Under the pieces are notes generated by a model, which saw only the letters and a program-made list of their open reading frames with translations, was not told the origin of the DNA and searched no databases. Source: Candidatus Aenigmatarchaeota archaeon (lineage in GTDB: Archaea > Aenigmatarchaeota > Aenigmatarchaeia > Aenigmatarchaeales > JACQIB01). From it: DNA of 36,138 bases. The stretch is from the NCBI GenBank assembly GCA_038999215.1, contig JAWABM010000006.1, forward strand, positions 1-36,138, in the 5' to 3' direction. This document shows, piece after piece, positions 7,407-24,428 of this stretch (within the stretch, counting starts at the first letter, position 1; the number at the start of each line of letters is the position of its first letter). The position numbers and the translations under genes were made by a program.

Positions 7407-7710
7407 GGTGTGCTGGACATAGCCCGTCTTCTGTGGGGCGAATCAGCGCCGCGAACGGCGCGTCCTTTGCATCGCCCGGCAACATCTGTCTTAGCTGCCT
7501 ACCCGCCCCTCTTTCCTCATCAGGGCCTACTTGGCATTGCACCGCGCCGGCATTGCCGTGAGAAACCATTACGCTCCTCTTCGGCTGCCCTGACCTCTCG
7601 GCCATGCCACTTGGTGGCGGCGCCTTTGACGGTGGACGGAACTTCCTCGAACCCTTTTCAGCGAAAAGCGTTCACGGAAAAGGATCCGGCGGTTGCCTGC
7701 CCAGCTCACC
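7407..7710 (-). ncRNA. rnpB: RNase P RNA
   Basis: The sense strand has CR-I GAGGAAGTTCCGTCC and CR-V ACAGAAGACGGGCTAT (P4). P1 is GGTGAGCTGGGCA/TGTCCAGCACACC and P2 is GGCAAC/GTTGCC; P3, P15/16 and an extended P19 are also present. TATA-like TTTTAAAA lies about 25 nt upstream. Confidence 0.93.
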
Positions 7711-8207: not shown

Positions 8208-8244
8208 TGCCGTCGCAGGAGCGCGCTTTTAAGGAGGTCTAAAC
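8208..8244 (-). other. 3' arm of the pre-23S BHB processing stem
   Basis: GTTTAGACCT-CCTT-AAA-AGCGC-GC-TCCTGCGACGGCA pairs with the 5' arm at 11677-11713. Confidence 0.9.
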
Positions 8245-8521
8245 AAAAGGCCGTTGGGCGCAGTGGGCTGAAATGGTCGCCGAAGCTTCCATCTTACACC
8301 CCTGCTCCATCAAACAGGTCGTCTAGCCTGTGGCCAATTGCCTATTTTTCCCGAACGCTTCAACCTTAGATGCCTTCAGGCTTTAGCGTCTATGGCGTAG
8401 CTATCCGGCGTTACCGCAAGATAACCGGTGTACCAGAGGCCACGAGGGGGCGTTCCTTTCGTACTTGCCCCTTCTTCGGGTCAGGCAAATGCACCTTCAG
8501 CAGATATAAACCGTACTGTCT

Positions 8522-8917
8522 TTGTCGTTCGGTGTGGGCCGCGCTATCACAATTAAATTGTGCGAGACAATCTTGAGGGCTCATCAGCTACTCTTGTTTC
8601 GGCACGTAGCCATTGGGGCGGTCCAGTCATTGCCCGGACTGCCTCGCAAAAAACCTATTCCATACCCTGGTATACCGCAGTCATCGATATGGCTACCAAA
8701 CTCTGAAAGTTTCGGTCACAGCCGGAGCTAACGCTCGGTCTATGCGGTTCATCTTAGGGATATGGAAAGCAGGATCGGTGGTGACTTCATTTATCATCCG
8801 CACGCATCAACCGCTGTCGCAGTCTGCTTTCACCTGCGCGCGTCTAGCTATCGAAATAACCCATCCTCATTCCCTGCTTGAAAGACCCGTTGAATCATGC
8901 GCATCCCACTACCAAAT
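8522..8917 (-). other. archaeal BHB intron 1 in 23S rRNA (396 nt, after the G2597 equivalent), no ORF
   Basis: The 4-bp helix GTCG/CGAC carries TGA and AAA bulges, and the intron stem is TTTGGT-A-GTGGG/CCCAC-ACCGAA. Cutting after the 2nd bulge nucleotide restores CGTCGTGAGACAG. Confidence 0.92.
8767..8879 (-). ncRNA. intron-encoded box C/D guide module with three K-turns
   Basis: The 8-bp terminal stem is AAGCAGGG/TCCTGCTT. Box pairs are C ATGAGGA/D CCGA, D' TAGA/C' ATGATAA and inner GTGAAAG/TTGA. Guides match 9211-9220 and 9007-9015. Confidence 0.72.
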
Positions 8918-9081
8918 CACGACGTACTGAACCCAGCTAATGTCCCCCTTTAATCAGTGAACACCTGCACCCTTGGCTACAGCTGCGCAGCCAGGAGGGG
9001 GGAAGCCGACAGCGAGGTAGCAACGCGCGGGGTCGATAGGAGCTCTCGCCCGCCACGACTCGGTTATCCCCGGGGTAGCTT

Positions 9082-9207
9082 AATCAGGTTACGGGCACCG
9101 AATGCGGGCAGAGGCCGTCTTCCCGACAATTGCAACTCGTCATGGCTATCGCCACAACTGATTCCAAAATTAAAGACCGCGTCTCTGCCCGCCCGATATC
9201 CGAAACT
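9082..9207 (-). other. archaeal BHB intron 2 in 23S rRNA (126 nt, after the A2433 equivalent)
   Basis: The helix TCAG/CTGA carries AAA and TTA bulges, and the long intron hairpin includes a perfect GCGGGCAGAG/CTCTGCCCGC. Splicing restores TCAGAAAAGCTACC. Confidence 0.93.
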
Positions 9208-11676
9208 TTCTGAAGTCACCGGCATCCATCAAGGACAGACTGGTGTATCGCTAGCCCACGCTTTCGCGGCTGGATCCTTTACTTTGAAGGGTCCAGTCAG
9301 GCTTCCTTTTGCGCTTACACTCTACTCCCGATTTCTGACCGGGATGAGGAAACCTTTGGGCACCCTTGATCTTCTGTCAAGGGTGTACCGCCCCAGCCAA
9401 GCTGTCCACCAACCGGTGTCCCCCCGAGTTGAGGGTTAGCCATATGTTCACAAAATGGCAGTGTTACATTGTCGCCTATCCGATGCCCAAAAGCATCGGC
9501 ATGACGGCTCCTGCCTACGCTATGAAGCCGCAAACATACAGCAACGACAGGCTACAGCAGAGCTCCACGGGGTCTTCTCTTCCCTCTGAAGGTCTGTGGC
9601 CTATTCACCACAATAGCAGGTTCGCCGGGTTCCAACCCGGGACAGCGAGGATGTCGTTAACCCCTTCATGCAGGCCGACAATTAATCGGCAAGGGATTAC
9701 GCTACCTTAAGACGGTCAGAGTTACCGCCGCCGTTTACGGGGGCTTGGCCCGGTTGAGACCGGGTTTAACACACCCGCACTGGGCAGGACTCACTGACTA
9801 TACTCAGGATTTCTCCTTAGCAGTCAGCTATGTTTTTGTTAAACAGTCGCATCCTCCTTGTCACTGAGACCTACCTGATCGCCAGGTAGGCAAGGGTTCT
9901 ACCGAAGATACCCCTCTAATTTGCCGAGTTCCCTGGATTGGTGTCTCCCGTGACGCCGACGCCTTCTCAGCAAGAGTCACCTGTGTCGGTTCTTGATACG
10001 ATCGCGCCCAATCCGACAGGCCTCATTTTCATGGGCTCCCGGAATCGCCCGAACCCCGGTATACACCAGGGCTGTTATCGCCTTCGCCCGGTTCTCTCCT
10101 TGACGGAACTTCCCGGGATTGAACGGTTAACTTGCGTCGGACTATCCTGAAGCGTCTGAGGCCTGCCTTGCGTTGCCGCGTGTATGGCCGCGGTGCAGGA
10201 ATATTAACCTGCTTCCCTTTCCCGTCCGTCAGTTAAGGGGACGGTTAGGATCGACTAACTCCCGGTTGATAGACATTGCCGGGAAACTCTTGCTCTTCTG
10301 GCGGTTAGGATTCCAACCTAACTTTGCTGCTACTAACAGCAGGATTCTCATTCCCGCGCGGTCCACGCCTGCTTGCGCAGACGCTTCCGCCCGCGCGGAA
10401 CGCCTCCCTACGCTATGACTTTCGTCATCTGGGGTCTCGGTGGTGGACTTACTCCCGTCCATCTTCACCGCACTGCTCCTCGATGGGTCCGCTGTTACGC
10501 GTTGATTATCGGGTGGCTGCTTCTGAGCCTACCGTCCCACTGTTTTTGGAGAAGCACCAGCTTTGTGACTTAGCCCACACTTTGGGACCTTAACCCCAGG
10601 CCAGCTTGTTTGCTCTTCGGATACCAAGCTTACCCCGGTACCCTCACTCCCGCCTTCTACGACGCCGACAGATTATGAGTTTGACAGGAACGTCAGAGGT
10701 TTCCCTCCGTATCATCCCAATCAGTGCTTTACCCCATCGGCGGTCTCCAGCGAGGCTGTGCTGAGGCACATTTCGAGAGGAACCAGCTATCACCGCTTTC
10801 GATTGGCTTTTCACCCCTATGCCCAGGTCACCTGGCCGATTAGGATCAGGATCAGTAGCGGGCCTCCACGCGGCTTTCGCCGCGCTTCGCCCTACCCAGG
10901 TATAGATCAAGCGGTTTCTGGTATTATCCCCGTGACTCCCCGCCCTTTCAGACGGCGCCCCTGGTTGCCTGCGGGCATGTCGCTTTCGCTGCGGCTACGC
11001 GCACAGCGCTTAACCTTGCCACGAGAATAAACTCCCTGCCACGTGTTTCGAAACGGAGATCATGACGCTGCAAAGCCCTCCTCCTACACACCCATTTCTG
11101 GACTTTCGTTCGGAAGGCCGCCTTTCACGCCATGACTGACTATCACTGGCTGGTTTCAAGCTCTTTTCATCTTCTATGAAGAATGCTTTTCAGCTTTCTC
11201 TCACGATACTTGTTCGCTATCGGACTCCGGACATATTTAGGGTTGGATGTTGATGCCACCCGTCTTCCCACAGCATATCCGAGCTGAGGTACTCGATTTC
11301 CGCAATCACCTTTCCTCCCTTCCCCTAAGGGGCTATCACCCTCTATGGCACGCCTTTCCAGGCGACTTCGGGTCAGAAGGCGAAGGTGTGCGCGGCTCCC
11401 ACATCTCCCTGCGTTTCCGCAGGGATTCGGTTCGCCCTGCTCCGCTTTCACTCGCCGTTACTAACGGAATCGCATTGCTTTCTCCTCCTCCGCTTATTAA
11501 GATGCTTCATTTCAGCGGGTTCCCTTTCCCCGAAGGGAATGCCGGCCGAAGCCGGCGTGAGGTCACATTGAGCAATCCACGGTTCTAAGGCCGCTTGCGC
11601 CTCGCCGTGGCTTATCGCAGCTTGCTACGACCTTCATCGGTGCCGGAGCCAAGCTATCCACCAGACAGTTTGTGGT

Positions 11677-11713
11677 GTTTAGACCTTTACCTTAGCACTT
11701 TCCTGCAACGGCA
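11677..11713 (-). other. 5' arm of the pre-23S BHB processing stem
   Basis: TGCCGTTGCAGGA-AA-GTGCT-AAGG-TAA-AGGTCTAAAC forms a 4-bp AAGG/CCTT helix between the 3-nt bulges TAA and AAA. Confidence 0.9.
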
Positions 11714-11737
11714 TCATCGTGAAATAAATTTCACTAC

Positions 11738-11809
11738 GGAAGCTCTAACGACCGTCCTGAAGTCATCACCCTGCGGTTCCTCAGGTGTTCTGCTCTTATC
11801 ACAGCTCCC
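11738..11809 (-). ncRNA. box C/D sRNA in the 23S 5' leader (predicted Cm1920-equivalent guide)
   Basis: Terminal stem GGGAGC/GCTTCC encloses C GTGATAA, D' CTGA, C' GTGATGA and D TAGA. The D guide AGGACGGTCG is complementary to 9709-9718. Confidence 0.78.
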
Positions 11810-12116
11810 TTCTTCTACCCTTCCACCGCCAACGGCATCTGTCGCGGTGTGCATCCTTTGCCGTCCTTTACCCCGTGGGTCGGTCATCGCCTTCCGGCTC
11901 CGCAGACAATACACGGACCAGTCATGCGGCAAGCCATGCTGATGCATGACAATGATAGTTGATTTCGATGGGTTTTGATAAACCCAAAGGAATTTTGACC
12001 CTTTAAGGTCAGAAAAAGCGTCATCTCGTCGCCGATTCAGCCAGGTTTCCAATGAATTCCTAATCGTTGAACATACAAAGCCACCTTTATGGCAAGTATA
12101 TAGTGCCTCCCGAAGG

Positions 12117-12773: not shown

Positions 12774-14027
12774 TCAGGTCTTGCTTATCAGTATTTCCAT
12801 GAACTCGTCTATGGTTATTACCGGGCCGCGTGAGCAGCTGTGCTCGTCGTACCCCCTTACTTCATTGGGCTGCACATCCTTGCCGTAAATCGCGAAAGGG
12901 AACGCGCCCGACTCGTGCATGCCCGAAAATATAGAAGTTATGTGGTCTGACGTCACAACCAGAAGTGTCGAGGAAACGTCGAGATATTCCATTATCCTCT
13001 TGAAGACCTCCCTGTCTATTTTCTCTATGAAGCCGCGCTTGGTGTCGAACTTCCTGTCGTGCGCAGCGACATCCGGGCCTAGTATGTGAAGGATGACAAA
13101 ATCGTGCTTCCTGAGCGCGTCAAGGGCCGCCATGGCCTTGTCCCTCAGGTTCGTGTTAAGGTCGCCTGTAGCGCCCGGAACGTCGATGACGTCCATGCCC
13201 GTCGCCCGCGCGATGCCCCTTACGACCGGGGAGGCGGCCACGCAGGCGGCCTTCTTGCCGAACATGTTCTCGAACGAATCAATCTCCCGCCGCATGCTCG
13301 CTCCGCGGAGAAGAATCATGTTGGCAGGATTCATTCTGAACTTGTTGGCAGGGTGCTCCTTCATTATCCTGCCGGCCTCGCGCGTCCACCTGTTCAGCAC
13401 ACTCGCTGTGTGAACGGCCGCATTGTCGTTGGTGAGCGGCTTTATCTCCTGCACCTTCATGCCAGCGACGCCGGGGTCGGAATCGCTCACGTGCGGCGAG
13501 GCGAGCACGTTCCTCAGCATGACTATGCACCTGTGGCCGACAGACTTGTGGAAGCGCACTACAGTTCCGTCGATGCTTATGCTTGCAATGCTCTCGGCAA
13601 TCTCCTTGAGCCCCTCCTTCTCCCTGCCGGCGCGGCGGTCCAGCACGATGAAATCCGGCTGCAGCAGGGTCTTGGGATTGTACGGCACGGTGCTCATCGA
13701 AGAGGGGACCTCACGCACAGTGGCGAAATTGGCGCGTATGCACACCTCGTCAGGCTTCGGGTCAAGGCCTATGCCCAGTGCGTCCAGATAGCCCCTTCCA
13801 GGATAGTCCTTTGGGTCGTAACCGAAAAGCGCGAAAGTCGAAACTCCGGAATCGGGGCCAAATTTGTCTGTACCGAGGCGGTTGTCTATCAGGCCGGCAA
13901 AGCCCTTTTCGGCAAAGAAGTCGAGCGCCGGCTTATTCGCCGCCTGCAGAGTCGTCTGCTTGCCTTCAATAAGGCCGTCGGCCGCGCCGTCAAGTATAAC
14001 GAGCAATACCTTCTTGGCCATAATCAT
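12774..14027 (-). CDS. apgM: 2,3-bisphosphoglycerate-independent phosphoglycerate mutase, archaeal type
   Basis: Motifs ILDGAAD, PDSG, GYDP..YPGRG, RANFAT, DRRAGR, PDVAAHD and TSDH. Shares an ATGA overlap with the AMP phosphorylase gene. Confidence 0.92.
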   Translation of the reverse strand: MIMAKKVLLVILDGAADGLIEGKQTTLQAANKPALDFFAEKGFAGLIDNRLGTDKFGPDSGVSTFALFGYDPKDYPGRGYLDALGIGLDPKPDEVCIRANFATVREVPSSMSTVPYNPKTLLQPDFIVLDRRAGREKEGLKEIAESIASISIDGTVVRFHKSVGHRCIVMLRNVLASPHVSDSDPGVAGMKVQEIKPLTNDNAAVHTASVLNRWTREAGRIMKEHPANKFRMNPANMILLRGASMRREIDSFENMFGKKAACVAASPVVRGIARATGMDVIDVPGATGDLNTNLRDKAMAALDALRKHDFVILHILGPDVAAHDRKFDTKRGFIEKIDREVFKRIMEYLDVSSTLLVVTSDHITSIFSGMHESGAFPFAIYGKDVQPNEVRGYDEHSCSRGPVITIDEFMEILISKT

Positions 14028-15583
14028 CTCTCCAGCATGAACGCCTTCCTGTGAATCATCTTGTCTGGGGCAACACCCATGAGCATCCTCCTCTCGATGC
14101 TCTCGTCCACTATCGTGGGCTCCATTGTCTCGGCCATTTTTGCGGCATTGCCGAGCCTCCTCTGGTTCTCGGCGTAAAGCGTCATCAGCAGCTCGCCCTT
14201 CTTAACGCTATCGCCTATCTTCTTGTTGAGCATTATCCCAGCCTTCTTGTCCTGCGGCGCGCCGAGCTCCTTCGCTATCATGGCTATCTCCGCGTTCTTC
14301 ATCCACAGGACCTTGCCGGACTTCTTGGAGAATATCCGGGCAGTCCTCTTGGCCAGCGCGATGTCGGACGATCTTATCTTCGGATCCCCTCCCTGCGCGC
14401 CTATTATCTCCTTCATCTTTTTGAGCGCCTTCCCGCTGCCCAATATCTCCAGCGCCAGCTTCTTTCCGGCATCAATATTTCTGCTCTTTCCAGTCAACTC
14501 GAAGAGCGCTCCGACGACCGAAACTACCTTCTCGACAACGTCGGCAGGCCCCCTGCCCTCCAAGGTCTGCAAGGCCTCGCGGGCCTCGAGCGCAGGCCCG
14601 ATGCCGTTGCCAAGCGGCTGCTCTCCAAATGTTATGGCGCAGGCTATGTTCATGCCCATCCTCCTCCCGAGGTCCCTGAACTCGGATGCGAGCGAATATG
14701 CGCTGCCGATTGTTTTTATCTTGGCACCCCTGCCTGTAGGTATGTCTATCACCACGTACTTGGCGCCCACGGCCTTCTTCTTGGACATTATCGACGGAAG
14801 CATAAGCGGGTCTACGCCCAGCGGATGCTCGATCCTTATGAAAACATCGTCCGCAGGGGCAAGGTCAAGCGAACCCCCCCAGACAAGGCATCCGTTGGTC
14901 TTCTTGACGACCTTGTAAATCTCCTCTATGCCGAGGTCCACCGGCGCGATGACCTCCATCCTGTCGGCCGTTCCGGCCGGCGAAGTTATGGCCCTCGACG
15001 AGGTCTTCGGTATTGTCAATCCGGCCGCGGCTATTATCGGGACGGCTATCATCGATGTCTTGTCCCCCGGTATTCCGCCGACCGAGTGCTTGTCGCATAT
15101 CTTCTTTCCCTTTATTTTCAGGCGCTTGCCTGTCTCGACCATGGCCATGGAAAGGCCTTCGGCCTCGTCCATCGAGAGCGGGTGGTCATGGAGCGACATG
15201 ACGAAGGCGGAAAGCTCTATGTCCGACAAATGGCGTTCGACAACGTCCTTCACTATTTCCTTCATCTTCATGCGGTCGAGCCTTATTCCGTTTATCCTCT
15301 GCCTCACATATCTGACCGATTCCGGCGCCTCGGCAGGGACAACCTCGACCATGTCGCCCTGCCTGAACTTGAAGAACCTCGTAACCTCGCTGTTTGTGAC
15401 CACGTATCCCTTTTCAACGAACTTCTCGGCCACGTCCACTATCGCTATCAAGGTCCTGCCGTTCTTCCTGAGAACCGCCCTTTCCAGGACGCCTATACCC
15501 ATCTCGCCTGCGTCAGACTTGTTGAGCATAACTATGCCTATGCCGCCGGCCTCGAAGCCCATAGGCCTGACCTTAAGGTTCAT
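14024..15583 (-). CDS. AMP phosphorylase
   Basis: Motifs DKHSVGGIPGDKT, PKTSSRAITSPAGTAD, WGGSLDLAPADD, SIMSKK and GIGPALEA, with the N-terminal extension typical of AMP phosphorylases. Confidence 0.95.
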   Translation of the reverse strand: MNLKVRPMGFEAGGIGIVMLNKSDAGEMGIGVLERAVLRKNGRTLIAIVDVAEKFVEKGYVVTNSEVTRFFKFRQGDMVEVVPAEAPESVRYVRQRINGIRLDRMKMKEIVKDVVERHLSDIELSAFVMSLHDHPLSMDEAEGLSMAMVETGKRLKIKGKKICDKHSVGGIPGDKTSMIAVPIIAAAGLTIPKTSSRAITSPAGTADRMEVIAPVDLGIEEIYKVVKKTNGCLVWGGSLDLAPADDVFIRIEHPLGVDPLMLPSIMSKKKAVGAKYVVIDIPTGRGAKIKTIGSAYSLASEFRDLGRRMGMNIACAITFGEQPLGNGIGPALEAREALQTLEGRGPADVVEKVVSVVGALFELTGKSRNIDAGKKLALEILGSGKALKKMKEIIGAQGGDPKIRSSDIALAKRTARIFSKKSGKVLWMKNAEIAMIAKELGAPQDKKAGIMLNKKIGDSVKKGELLMTLYAENQRRLGNAAKMAETMEPTIVDESIERRMLMGVAPDKMIHRKAFMLER

Positions 15584-15625
15584 ATCGCACCCTCAATATA
15601 GTTTTGGAGAAGGCGCTATTTAAAA

Positions 15626-15988
15626 TTACAAGCCAGAACAAACCGTCTTGCCGGCCGCCTGGTTGCAGGCGAGCTTCAGGTTGGAACAATCAAGCTTGTC
15701 GGCATGATAGCGGTTATGGATGTTGCACAGGTTCCCAATGTACCATTCCACCTGCGGCAGGCTGTTGTCCGCAGACGTGTCGCAGTTCCACTTCGCCCAG
15801 TAATTGCAGTGCTCTATCATCACGTCCTTGGCCGAGGCGCACTTGTAGCCCGGTCGTGCCACTTCGCAGCCCTGCTTGTCGGTGTAGACCGGTATCGAGA
15901 CCAGAATTACGAATATTACCAAGGCTGCTATCGCAGCGATATCGAACCTTGACAGCCTAGGCATCTTCATGTTTGCCATGACAATCAT
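15626..15988 (-). CDS. membrane-anchored or secreted Cys-rich hypothetical protein
   Basis: N-terminal hydrophobic helix followed by about 85 aa containing 8 Cys. Confidence 0.75.
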   Translation of the reverse strand: MIVMANMKMPRLSRFDIAAIAALVIFVILVSIPVYTDKQGCEVARPGYKCASAKDVMIEHCNYWAKWNCDTSADNSLPQVEWYIGNLCNIHNRYHADKLDCSNLKLACNQAAGKTVCSGL

Positions 15989-16003
15989 CTGGCATTCAAG
16001 CTT

Positions 16004-17182
16004 TTAAACGTTTTCCACAGCCTTTCTCATGGCGGCAGCGCCAGCGCGGGTGCCGCCTGGATAACCGTGCACTCCTCCGCCGGCCTGTATTATGATGTCC
16101 TTGCCGAGCATATTCACGAGCGGCCTTACCAAGCCGGGATGCAGCCCGCCCGAGCAAACGGCGAAGACCGGCTTTACCCTCCCCCACTTCTCCGCCATCA
16201 TATGCTTCCCTGACTTGACGAACTGGCTTTCCATGTCCTCGACTATGCTTATCAAATCGGCCTTGCCGCCCTCCATCTTGCCGACTGCGGTCCCGACGTG
16301 GAGCTGATCGACGCCGACGAGCCTCGCCGCCTCCGCTAGCACGCGCATGGAAACGCCGTGCTTTGGGTTGCGCGTGAGGGCGGCGTGCATGGCCCTGTGG
16401 CCATGGAGCACGAGCTTGAGCTTTTGCATCTCTTCCCTCAGAGTCTGCAGGCCTGACCAGCCTACTGTAAGGATGTCAACCATGGCATAGTCGTTGCCGT
16501 GGTCCCTCAGGAATTTCGCTCTCTTCAGCATCTCCCTTGTCTCGGCAGTGACGTTGCATATGTAGACCTTTCGTTCACCTGTCTCGCGCTCGGCGCGCTC
16601 CTTCATCCTGATGGTCTCGATTGCCCTCGCGTAGAAATTATTGAAAGTCTGCGAAGAAAGGTTCTCATCATCCTTTACCATATCAATGCCGCCGACCCAT
16701 GCCTCGTACGCGACCTTGGCATGCTCCTTCGGGTCCAGTCCGAGCTTTGGCTTGATTATCGTGCCGACGAGCGGCCTCTTTGGCACGCGAAGCAGCTTCC
16801 TCACGCCCGGCACGCCATACTGCGGCCCCCTGAAGGAATCCATTATCTTCTTGGGCCAGCGCACGTCGATGAGGCGCAGGTTCTCGACCTCCTTCATGCC
16901 GAAGACGTTCCCTGCAATCGATGAGAATATCTGCGGCATGTTGCCAGGCTCGAAGAGCTCCTTCGGATAAGCAACCTTGAAATAGTTGCCCTTGACGCTG
17001 AATACCTTGGCGCCCATCCTCCTTATCCTCGGCGTCATTGTCGCTACTTCCTTCCATGTCCCCACGGAGGACTCGGCGGCAACGGCTTCCCTTGCCTGGT
17101 CGGTCGCTGGCTCTATCCTGAAGGTGCAGACCAGATCGTCCTTTGGCTTGTATCCGAGATGAACATAACCCTCGTAAACCAT
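16004..17182 (-). CDS. rbcL: RuBisCO large subunit, form III
   Basis: Motifs AAESSVGTW, GTIIKPKLGL, KDDENL, HRAMH, GTAVGKMEG, SGG and QAGGG. The start MVYEG overlaps the upstream stop (TGATG). Confidence 0.95.
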   Translation of the reverse strand: MVYEGYVHLGYKPKDDLVCTFRIEPATDQAREAVAAESSVGTWKEVATMTPRIRRMGAKVFSVKGNYFKVAYPKELFEPGNMPQIFSSIAGNVFGMKEVENLRLIDVRWPKKIMDSFRGPQYGVPGVRKLLRVPKRPLVGTIIKPKLGLDPKEHAKVAYEAWVGGIDMVKDDENLSSQTFNNFYARAIETIRMKERAERETGERKVYICNVTAETREMLKRAKFLRDHGNDYAMVDILTVGWSGLQTLREEMQKLKLVLHGHRAMHAALTRNPKHGVSMRVLAEAARLVGVDQLHVGTAVGKMEGGKADLISIVEDMESQFVKSGKHMMAEKWGRVKPVFAVCSGGLHPGLVRPLVNMLGKDIIIQAGGGVHGYPGGTRAGAAAMRKAVENV

Positions 17183-17991
17183 CACAACAACCTCATCAGA
17201 TTGCCCGGCGTCATGACGCCCTTCTCCGTGATTACGCGCGAAACGAGCTTCCACGGCGTGATGTCGAACGCCGGATTCAATATCTTCACGCCCTTCAGCG
17301 AATGATATATCTCGTTCGCAGGCCGCATCTCTATCCTGATTTTCCTGCGCCTGTCGAGCTTGAGCGTCGAAGCAGCGACATAATAAGGCTTCCCGAACTC
17401 GCGGGCGGCAAGAGCCAGATTGAACGAACCTATCTTGTTGACATTGCCTTCGCGGCGCATGGCATCGCTGCCCAGCAGAACGTAATCGACCTGCGGCATG
17501 AAATAGGAGACGGCGTTATCGGCTATCAGCGTCACCGGCATCTTCGCCTCGGCGAGCTCGGTGGCGGTCTTTATTCCTTGGTGCTTCGGCTCGGTCTCCG
17601 TTGCGATGACGGAGATCTTCTTTCCAGAGGCGGATGCGTGCTTGAGAACGGCCACTGCGACGCCAGAGTGGCAGTGCGTCATTATGACGTCACCTGACTT
17701 GATGAACTTGGCATTGACAGCTATCTTCTTTGTCGAGGACCTTATATTTGCCAGCAGACTTTCTATTGTTTCGCCTGAAGGCTCCCTTTTCAGCTCCTCC
17801 ACGCAGTTGTGCAGCACCACTGCTGTGGGCCGCGCCTCCTCCAGCTTCTGCATCGCTTCAAAGAATTCCTTGCCGTATCCGTATTCGCTGCCATAGCTCC
17901 GCAGGAACTTCAGGCTCTCCACGGCTATTTCCTGGGCGCCCTGTATACCAAGGCCCCTTATCTTCGCCACCATCTCGCGGAGCTCGGGCAT
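17182..17991 (-). CDS. ribose-1,5-bisphosphate isomerase (eIF2B family)
   Basis: Motifs IQGA, RPTAV, THCHS, GSD, NKIGS and NPAFDITP. Lies directly upstream of RuBisCO. Confidence 0.9.
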   Translation of the reverse strand: MPELREMVAKIRGLGIQGAQEIAVESLKFLRSYGSEYGYGKEFFEAMQKLEEARPTAVVLHNCVEELKREPSGETIESLLANIRSSTKKIAVNAKFIKSGDVIMTHCHSGVAVAVLKHASASGKKISVIATETEPKHQGIKTATELAEAKMPVTLIADNAVSYFMPQVDYVLLGSDAMRREGNVNKIGSFNLALAAREFGKPYYVAASTLKLDRRRKIRIEMRPANEIYHSLKGVKILNPAFDITPWKLVSRVITEKGVMTPGNLMRLL

Positions 17992-24323: not shown

Positions 24324-24397
24324 GCCCCCGTAGTTTAGCTTGGATAGAATGCGAGGTTGCGGACCTCGAAACCTGGGTTCGAATCCCAGCGGGGGCA
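24324..24397 (+). tRNA. tRNA-Arg (anticodon GCG)
   Basis: Acceptor stem GCCCCCG/CGGGGGC, anticodon arm CGAGG-TTGCGGA-CCTCG and T arm CTGGG-TTCGAAT-CCCAG. No intron; followed by a T-tract. Confidence 0.96.
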
Positions 24398-24428
24398 CCT
24401 TTTTTAATAAGCGGCGCAAAGTGATATC

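Follow-up and report, generated by a model that had tools for sequence, protein, structure and literature searches.

The window, a stretch of 36,138 nucleotides (nt) from contig JAWABM010000006.1 of a Candidatus Aenigmatarchaeota archaeon (GCA_038999215.1), carries on its minus strand an archaeal 23S ribosomal RNA (rRNA) gene (8235..11686; Rfam RF02540, 2407.8 bits) with two bulge-helix-bulge (BHB) introns. Intron 1 (8522..8917, minus strand) consists of 396 nt, contains no open reading frame (ORF), is inserted after G2597 in the loop of helix 93 and holds a cassette of guides. The element at 8780..8789 is, with a probability of about 0.75 as judged from sequence comparison, one guide of this conserved cassette, likely directing the 2'-O-methylation of G9217 (E. 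coli G2421, yeast G2793), whereas the overlap of its target with the splice motif of intron 2 is likely incidental. By the comparative evidence presented below, the G2421 guide is a real guide of the C/D type.

The G2421 guide and its target base

The guide (8789-8780, minus strand) is a complete Watson-Crick complement (10/10) of nucleotides 9220-9211, as the earlier note had described. It is located in the 12-nt spacer (8790-8779) between a C'-like box, AUGAUAA (8791..8797, minus strand), and a D box, CCGA (8775..8778, minus strand). The D+5 nucleotide, C8783, is paired with G9217, which lies 8 nt ahead of the AAAA run; this assignment was likewise borne out. The length, the number of pairs and the pair at D+5 correspond to those given for C/D guides, for which about 10-12 nt and a minimum of 9 Watson-Crick pairs with the rRNA, D+5 among them, are required (PMC6009581; here and below, the statements on published work refer to excerpts of the cited papers). 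The full consensus of the boxes (RUGAUGA and CUGA) is absent from the two boxes flanking this guide, and the cores RUGA and GA are retained. RUGA was retained also in the related loci L118 and L024. The motif of the G2421 guide was detected in 16 of the 66 related introns described below, and in all 16 GA was found at the offset that gives D+5 at the target (background GA 0.083). The D box is a perfect CUGA in four of these carriers: L022, L104, L129 and L155.

The target (9211..9220, minus strand) belongs to the 5' exon of intron 2 and covers the end of helix 88 and the E-site linker, with G9217 as the predicted methylated base. In the structural alignments of Rfam, G9217 forms the last pair of helix 88, in a same-genus relative and in E. 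coli alike, and the corresponding E. coli base is G2421. The linker after helix 88 has three more bases in bacteria. The earlier note had equated G9217 with yeast 25S Gm2793 and with approximately E. coli 2424. The former was upheld by the structural alignment, whereas the latter, a product of ungapped counting or pairwise alignment, was replaced by 2421. A yeast oligonucleotide beginning at 2793 shows that G2793, like G9217, lies 11 nt ahead of the point where the A run ends (PMC5199042, supplement), and tRNA A76 stacks between G2793 and G2794, of which G2794 equals bacterial 2422 (PMC8430933). G2421-C2395 is the E-site pair, and its pairing is needed for translation (PMC4615901). At about 9248, the base before helix 88, the universally conserved E-site C2394 appears as A in the alignment of L024, the alignment confidence being lower there.

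Published guides are directed to the same bases. According to our reading of the sequences listed in the supplement of PMC4644070, Methanococcus maripaludis (Mma) sR103 and Methanopyrus kandleri (Mka) sR126 are read via D+5 onto the same helix-88 G, that is G2421. Like the guide of the window, they have a 2-nt spacer followed by a D-type box, which sets D+5 to the G that ends helix 88. In contrast, sR103 and sR126 carry the consensus AUGAUGA and CUGA boxes and use a D' guide, while the window has a D guide with CCGA inside an rRNA intron; CCGA D boxes are present in the listed small RNAs (sRNAs) of Mka and Iho. Nanoarchaeum equitans (Neq) sR14 and Mma sR106 correspond in the same way to U2438, sharing the guide core and the register with the U2438 guide of the window, and Sac sR103 corresponds to U2479 in the same register. 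The same A-C mismatch as in the window guide occurs between sR106 and its listed 23S rRNA. In contrast to the U2438 guide of the window, which is part of an rRNA intron, sR14 and sR106 are listed as separate sRNA loci. All these guides of Mma, Mka, Neq and Sac were detected by RNA-seq and catalogued as ordinary sRNAs (PMC4644070). Yeast snR48, which guides Gm2791 and Gm2793 (PMC5389607, PMC5199042), has an equivalent target base in helix 88, but it is a eukaryotic small nucleolar RNA (snoRNA) with an atypical D' box marking two bases, compared here by its target.

Intron 1 among relatives and its other modules

The source genome comprises 571 kb and is 88% complete. The pattern for an insertion after G2597 gave matches in 32 of 371 genomes of the class, including 21 of the 42 genomes of the order, and most of the named relatives that share it carry the label Ca. 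Aenigmatarchaeota. No native intron-less junction was found assembled among the order genomes. An intact junction occurred in one of the 42 (G013), on foreign contigs 63-73% identical to the genome's own locus or bacterial-like, and was rejected; of the foreign 23S contigs of G013, L169 and L170, one is bacterial-like and one distant archaeal. The remaining order genomes gave no match for either the intron or the intact junction, which may reflect unassembled rRNA. Intron 1 is apparently fixed in the order.

The junction pattern was present in 154 loci, of which 24 without a 3' exon were dropped; L028-L094 were excluded as other families, duplicates of L007-L027 or non-archaeal. The final set contained 66 distinct complete introns of 145-642 nt from genome and metagenome loci. 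The metagenome loci placed on the exon tree fall among the order genomes. The central 4-bp helix of the BHB was intact in all 66 introns, and none of them contained an ORF longer than 73 codons. Other Aenigmatarchaeota, as well as Micrarchaeota, have introns at this site that contain LAGLIDADG-like ORFs (L028, L038, L056, L088, L092), the motif being recognized by eye. These ORFs suggest a homing ancestor of intron 1, with the direction of change only presumed.

A scan of the 66 introns for boxes combined with a duplex resulted in 200 matches compared with 98 in 50 shuffled sets (maximum 116). The matches were directed to G2251 (20), A2600 (13), G2421 (12) and U2479 (10), and further to the C two bases after G2421 (7), C2601 (7), U2492 (5) and U2552 (4). 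The A2600/C2601 guide overlaps intron 1's own BHB in L013, L099, L111, L115, L122, L123, L136, L146, L149 and L150, and in L111, L115 and L146 it spans the ligated junction.

The G2421 guide belongs to C/D module A (8767..8879, minus strand), which was outlined by the alignment with L118 and L024 and by the fold. It is composed of a terminal stem (8879-8873/8773-8767), a C box (8870-8864), the U2479 guide, D', C', the G2421 guide and D, and contains two or three guides. The terminal stem and the bipartite C-guide-D'-loop-C'-guide-D layout were found in L024, whereas a third unit is present in addition in the window and L118. Guide 1 (8843..8854, minus strand) forms 7 bp, is followed by D'-like UAGA and has U2479 (window 9036) as the predicted target; its motif was detected in 23 of the 66 introns and the register in 18. 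A U2449 guide had been considered at 8858-8864 and was dropped, the alignment showing the U2479 guide. The inserted third unit (8807..8833, minus strand) is weak: it has a C-like box (8833-8827), an 8-bp guide and D-like UUGA (8810-8807), with U2504 (window 9011) as the predicted target. It was seen only in the window and L118 and is absent from L024, so that a three-guide ring is thinly supported, by two sequences. At 9012 (23S position 2503) the window has C where E. coli has A2503, as do all 63 related loci with data; the duplex formed by the putative U2504 guide includes this C.

Module B (8656..8765, minus strand) is an H/ACA-like hairpin with the predicted target U2611 (window 8508). It has a lower stem (8765-8758/8667-8660), pockets (8754-8749 and 8673-8669), an upper stem, a K-turn and an AUA box (8658-8656). 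The ANA box is 15 nt from the top of the pocket, compared with 14-16 nt in the H/ACA geometry (PMC4652768), the order of stem, pocket and stem with the K-turn is present, and Cbf5 and Nop10 are encoded in the genome. The alignment consisted of 34 selected hairpins out of 46 extracted ones, the upper stem having been required at extraction and the lower (86%) not; 92.5% of its cells were paired and 10 of 11 pairs showed double changes, far above the slid controls. The pockets match 2607-2609 and 2613-2617, and U2611 is invariant in all 66 loci. Pocket and target covary partially at positions 2610 and 2612, whereas the 3' pocket usually contains a U-U mismatch. The hairpin shares with H/ACA guides the lower stem, the pocket, the GA stem with a K-turn and the ANA box 14-15 nt from the pocket top (PMC4652768), and differs from them in the U-U mismatch and in being embedded in an rRNA intron. 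The lower stem and the box are missing in a subgroup of the relatives, as they are in H/ACA-like motifs. U2611 was not found as a target in the excerpts of the H/ACA literature consulted. C/D-like units nested in the apical loop of the hairpin were observed in L111, L115, L146, L025, L122 and the window (8690-8742).

C/D module C (8577..8635, minus strand) has a C box (8630-8624), a guide (8622-8614) for G2251 (window 9393) and a second guide (8592-8586) with the D box AUGA (8584-8581) for U2438 (window 9077); D'/C' is replaced by a plain internal hairpin. The register of the U2438 guide was found in 59 of the 66 introns, and the guide covaries with its target (42 C-G and 4 U-A pairs, the latter in two clades). 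Outside the rRNA exons, the G2251 guide motif was present only in intron 1, and no SpoU-family methylase was found, both in a genome that is 88% complete. A hammerhead proposed at 8580-8600 was dropped, as the alignment shows the D box of module C there.

Searches with Rfam gave no C/D or H/ACA family, at the gathering score or at E-values up to 10. The genome-wide scan for C/D units, run without shuffle control, resulted in 20 matches of at least 9 bp. An 11-nt complement to the exon/intron-2 junction at 8715-8705 was rejected as a splice-site guide: it is identical in L024, which has no intron 2, and is interrupted in L118, where the start of intron 2 differs as well. The conserved part beside it matches helix 69 (U1915 family), without a D box in the window. 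Directly inside the intron stem, at window 8882-8890, lies a GGUCUU motif that is widely retained in the 5' part of related introns; it complements 23S rRNA at about 2059-2064 and has no evident boxes.

Guide pairing, intron 2 and alternative explanations

Intron 2 (9082..9207, minus strand) has 126 nt and is inserted after A2433. Both introns have 3-nt bulges flanking a 4-bp helix, and the exons join into conserved rRNA, 2930 nt long without the introns. The genome encodes fibrillarin, Nop5, two EndA subunits, Cbf5, L7Ae-family proteins, RtcB and Nop10. In the minus-strand gene intron 2 precedes intron 1 in transcription. Positions 8582-8917 of intron 1 recur without any difference in a contig of a DNA run, possibly from the source sample.

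The overlap of the target with the intron-2 BHB, noticed earlier for the outer pairs and the 4-bp helix, proved to be larger. Nucleotides 9215-9214 are the outer pairs and 9213-9211 lie inside the 4-bp helix, while 9220-9217 lengthen the outer helix, so that the fold of the precursor leaves one of the 10 target bases unpaired and pairs the other 9 (P 0.73-0.94). The earlier note had proposed that guide binding and intron-2 splicing exclude each other, which could impose an order on splicing and methylation. The mutual exclusion of the pairings was retained, since the guide duplex and the BHB helix are physically incompatible in the fold, whereas the imposed order found little support in the comparative data.

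Among the 58 introns used for this comparison (8 of the 66 had no data for the intron-2 site), six had the guide and intron 2, nine the guide only, eight intron 2 only and 35 neither (Fisher p 0.16). Thus 9 of the 15 guide carriers lack intron 2 and 8 of the 14 intron-2 carriers lack the G2421 guide. Intron 2 is patchy, being present in 14 of the 58 relatives and changing 9 times on the tree. In eight independent pairs differing in intron 2, the guide was unchanged in about 6.5 and the presence of either guide in 7.5. In G005, of the same genus, the guide is present and intron 2 absent; G002 and L127 have an identical intron 1 and share 300 of 300 upstream exon bases, with intron 2 only in G002. 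Neither co-occurrence nor co-evolution of the guide with intron 2 was found in these comparisons, a role in splicing order is unsupported, and the overlap is likely incidental. The lineage has 18 intron sites between 2240 and 2620; a footprint would touch the BHB of one intron or another at 67% of the domain-V positions, and all 11 guide footprints observed in the lineage do so. With assumed footprint sizes, the chance that one of the five window guides overlaps one of the two BHBs is about 0.43.

A model in which guide binding gates or orders the splicing of intron 2, and is selected for that, appears unlikely to us. The paired state of the target in the precursor is compatible with it, and formation of the guide duplex (-15.1 kcal/mol) yields more than is needed to open the target there (+6.9 kcal/mol), so that a trans-acting ribonucleoprotein (RNP) could melt the BHB. 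Moreover, two predicted targets, G9217 and U9077 (G2421 and U2438), pair with each other as G-U in the helix of the intron-2 precursor (P 0.83). These points are countered by the independent distribution of guide and intron, the lack of co-change across the eight pairs, the high chance of overlap and the guides of other archaea, which have the same targets and are catalogued as ordinary sRNAs. The order of transcription also favours the earlier formation of the BHB. Transcription completes intron 2 about 290 nt ahead of the guide, and the target, lying wholly in the exon, survives splicing intact; splicing followed by methylation would therefore be the default without a dedicated control. It is similarly doubtful that the guides are mainly folding chaperones which melt alternative helices of domain V, with methylation secondary or absent. 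Such roles and non-methylating guides were proposed in PMC4644070 and PMC6009581, the exon strands around 2433 can pair together and are both covered by guides, and module C has a plain hairpin instead of D'/C'. However, a strict D+5 register (16/16) with Watson-Crick pairing at that position is what catalytic guides would be expected to show, and the opening of the target in the local spliced stretch costs only 1.7 kcal/mol. The least probable explanation, already largely refuted, is that a neutral intron contains the complement by chance or as a decayed relic. Of 2000 shuffles of intron 1, 53% contained some 10-nt complement to 23S rRNA when no boxes were required, the boxes are degenerate, and the 11-nt match at 8715-8705 looks random. 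Against this stand the conserved register, the enrichment over shuffles, the identity with published guides and the covarying stems; the match is regarded as real on these comparative data and not on its occurrence in a single window.

Several observations weigh against our own interpretation, in which the G2421 guide serves methylation and its overlap with the BHB is incidental. The boxes C' AUGAUAA and D CCGA are degenerate, and with a loose C/D context 4.8% of 2000 shuffles still matched, giving a borderline single-window P of about 0.05. The 16 guide carriers are kin, the trait changing five times on the tree; the target does not vary among the 15 carriers with data, leaving no covariation for the G2421 guide, and the guide of L024 contains a G-U pair. 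Of 23 listed sequencing runs, none contained half of the sequence words searched for. The RNA contigs of four runs cover exons only and come largely from other organisms, with the introns uncovered; the lone RNA joint that skips intron 2 has 25 nt on one side. As for incidental overlap, the test with eight independent pairs has little power, intron 2 is associated with the sister guide in naive tables (p 0.009), either guide occurred in 9 of 14 loci with intron 2 vs 12 of 44 without it (p 0.023, uncorrected), and the difference between G002 and L127 could be one of assembly.

Proposed function and significance

Intron 1 is probably excised, binds L7Ae, Nop5-fibrillarin and Cbf5 and modifies domain V of its host 23S rRNA; we infer the following course. 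EndA and RtcB would excise the intron, and L7Ae would bind the degenerate K-turns of its RNA. Nop5-fibrillarin would methylate G2421, U2438, G2251, U2479 and perhaps U2504, and Cbf5 would use the H/ACA-like hairpin for U2611, a predicted pseudouridine. By analogy with the tRNA-Trp intron, the guides may act mainly in trans. The G2421 guide would bind after intron 2 has left or would compete with it transiently, with no selection for order.

The closest likeness is the BHB intron of pre-tRNA-Trp (Haloferax volcanii; Pyrococcus sR50), which, as the window intron, contains a C/D guide for its own host RNA and is reported to act in trans (PMC7994747, PMC4090602). In the window, the host is 23S rRNA, there are several modules including the H/ACA-like hairpin, the boxes are degenerate, and the intron length in relatives varies from 145 to 642 nt. 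The known BHB introns of archaeal rRNA (homing-endonuclease, hairpin and remnant types) share the BHB ends, whereas no host function is given for them in the excerpts of PMC4496867 and PMC6125680; the window intron is ORF-less with a conserved guide cargo. No published rRNA intron encoding guides was found in a limited and weak literature search, in which the box name was unsearchable, only the spelling Aenigmarchaeota was used and subscription papers were outside.

Several features were observed around the gene. RNase P RNA (7408-7709) adjoins the 3' end of the 23S rRNA, and the 23S leader (11687-12060) contains several RUGA-type motifs. Genes for phosphoglycerate mutase, an AMP-phosphorylase-like protein and the RuBisCO large chain are located at 12774-17254, and tRNA-Arg(GCG) at 24324-24399. 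The organism's own 16S rRNA (L001:1630-2060 and about 2580-2625; G000:C5) contains, as recognized by eye, an intron of the endonuclease type, in which there is an assembly gap, and a short insertion that is BHB-like.

Archaeal rRNA introns are usually regarded as mobile or remnant elements. We consider the cassette by itself probable. The full proposal, in which a former homing-endonuclease intron was domesticated order-wide into a polycistronic snoRNA-like cassette (with a three-guide C/D ring and an H/ACA hairpin) and the RNPs released from it additionally open the splice helices in further rRNA introns, coupling splicing, modification and folding of the peptidyl-transferase region as a checkpoint, is improbable; the claim on splicing order would be new if true and has little support from the comparative data. 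The cassette is small and lends itself to reconstitution in vitro. If confirmed, an ORF-less, apparently fixed intron supplying guides for G2251 in the P-loop, G2421 in the E-site pair and other bases of domain V would mean a host job for an rRNA intron. It would also be an archaeal parallel to the intron-hosted snoRNAs of eukaryotes, with the supply of guides tied one-to-one to the transcription of rRNA.
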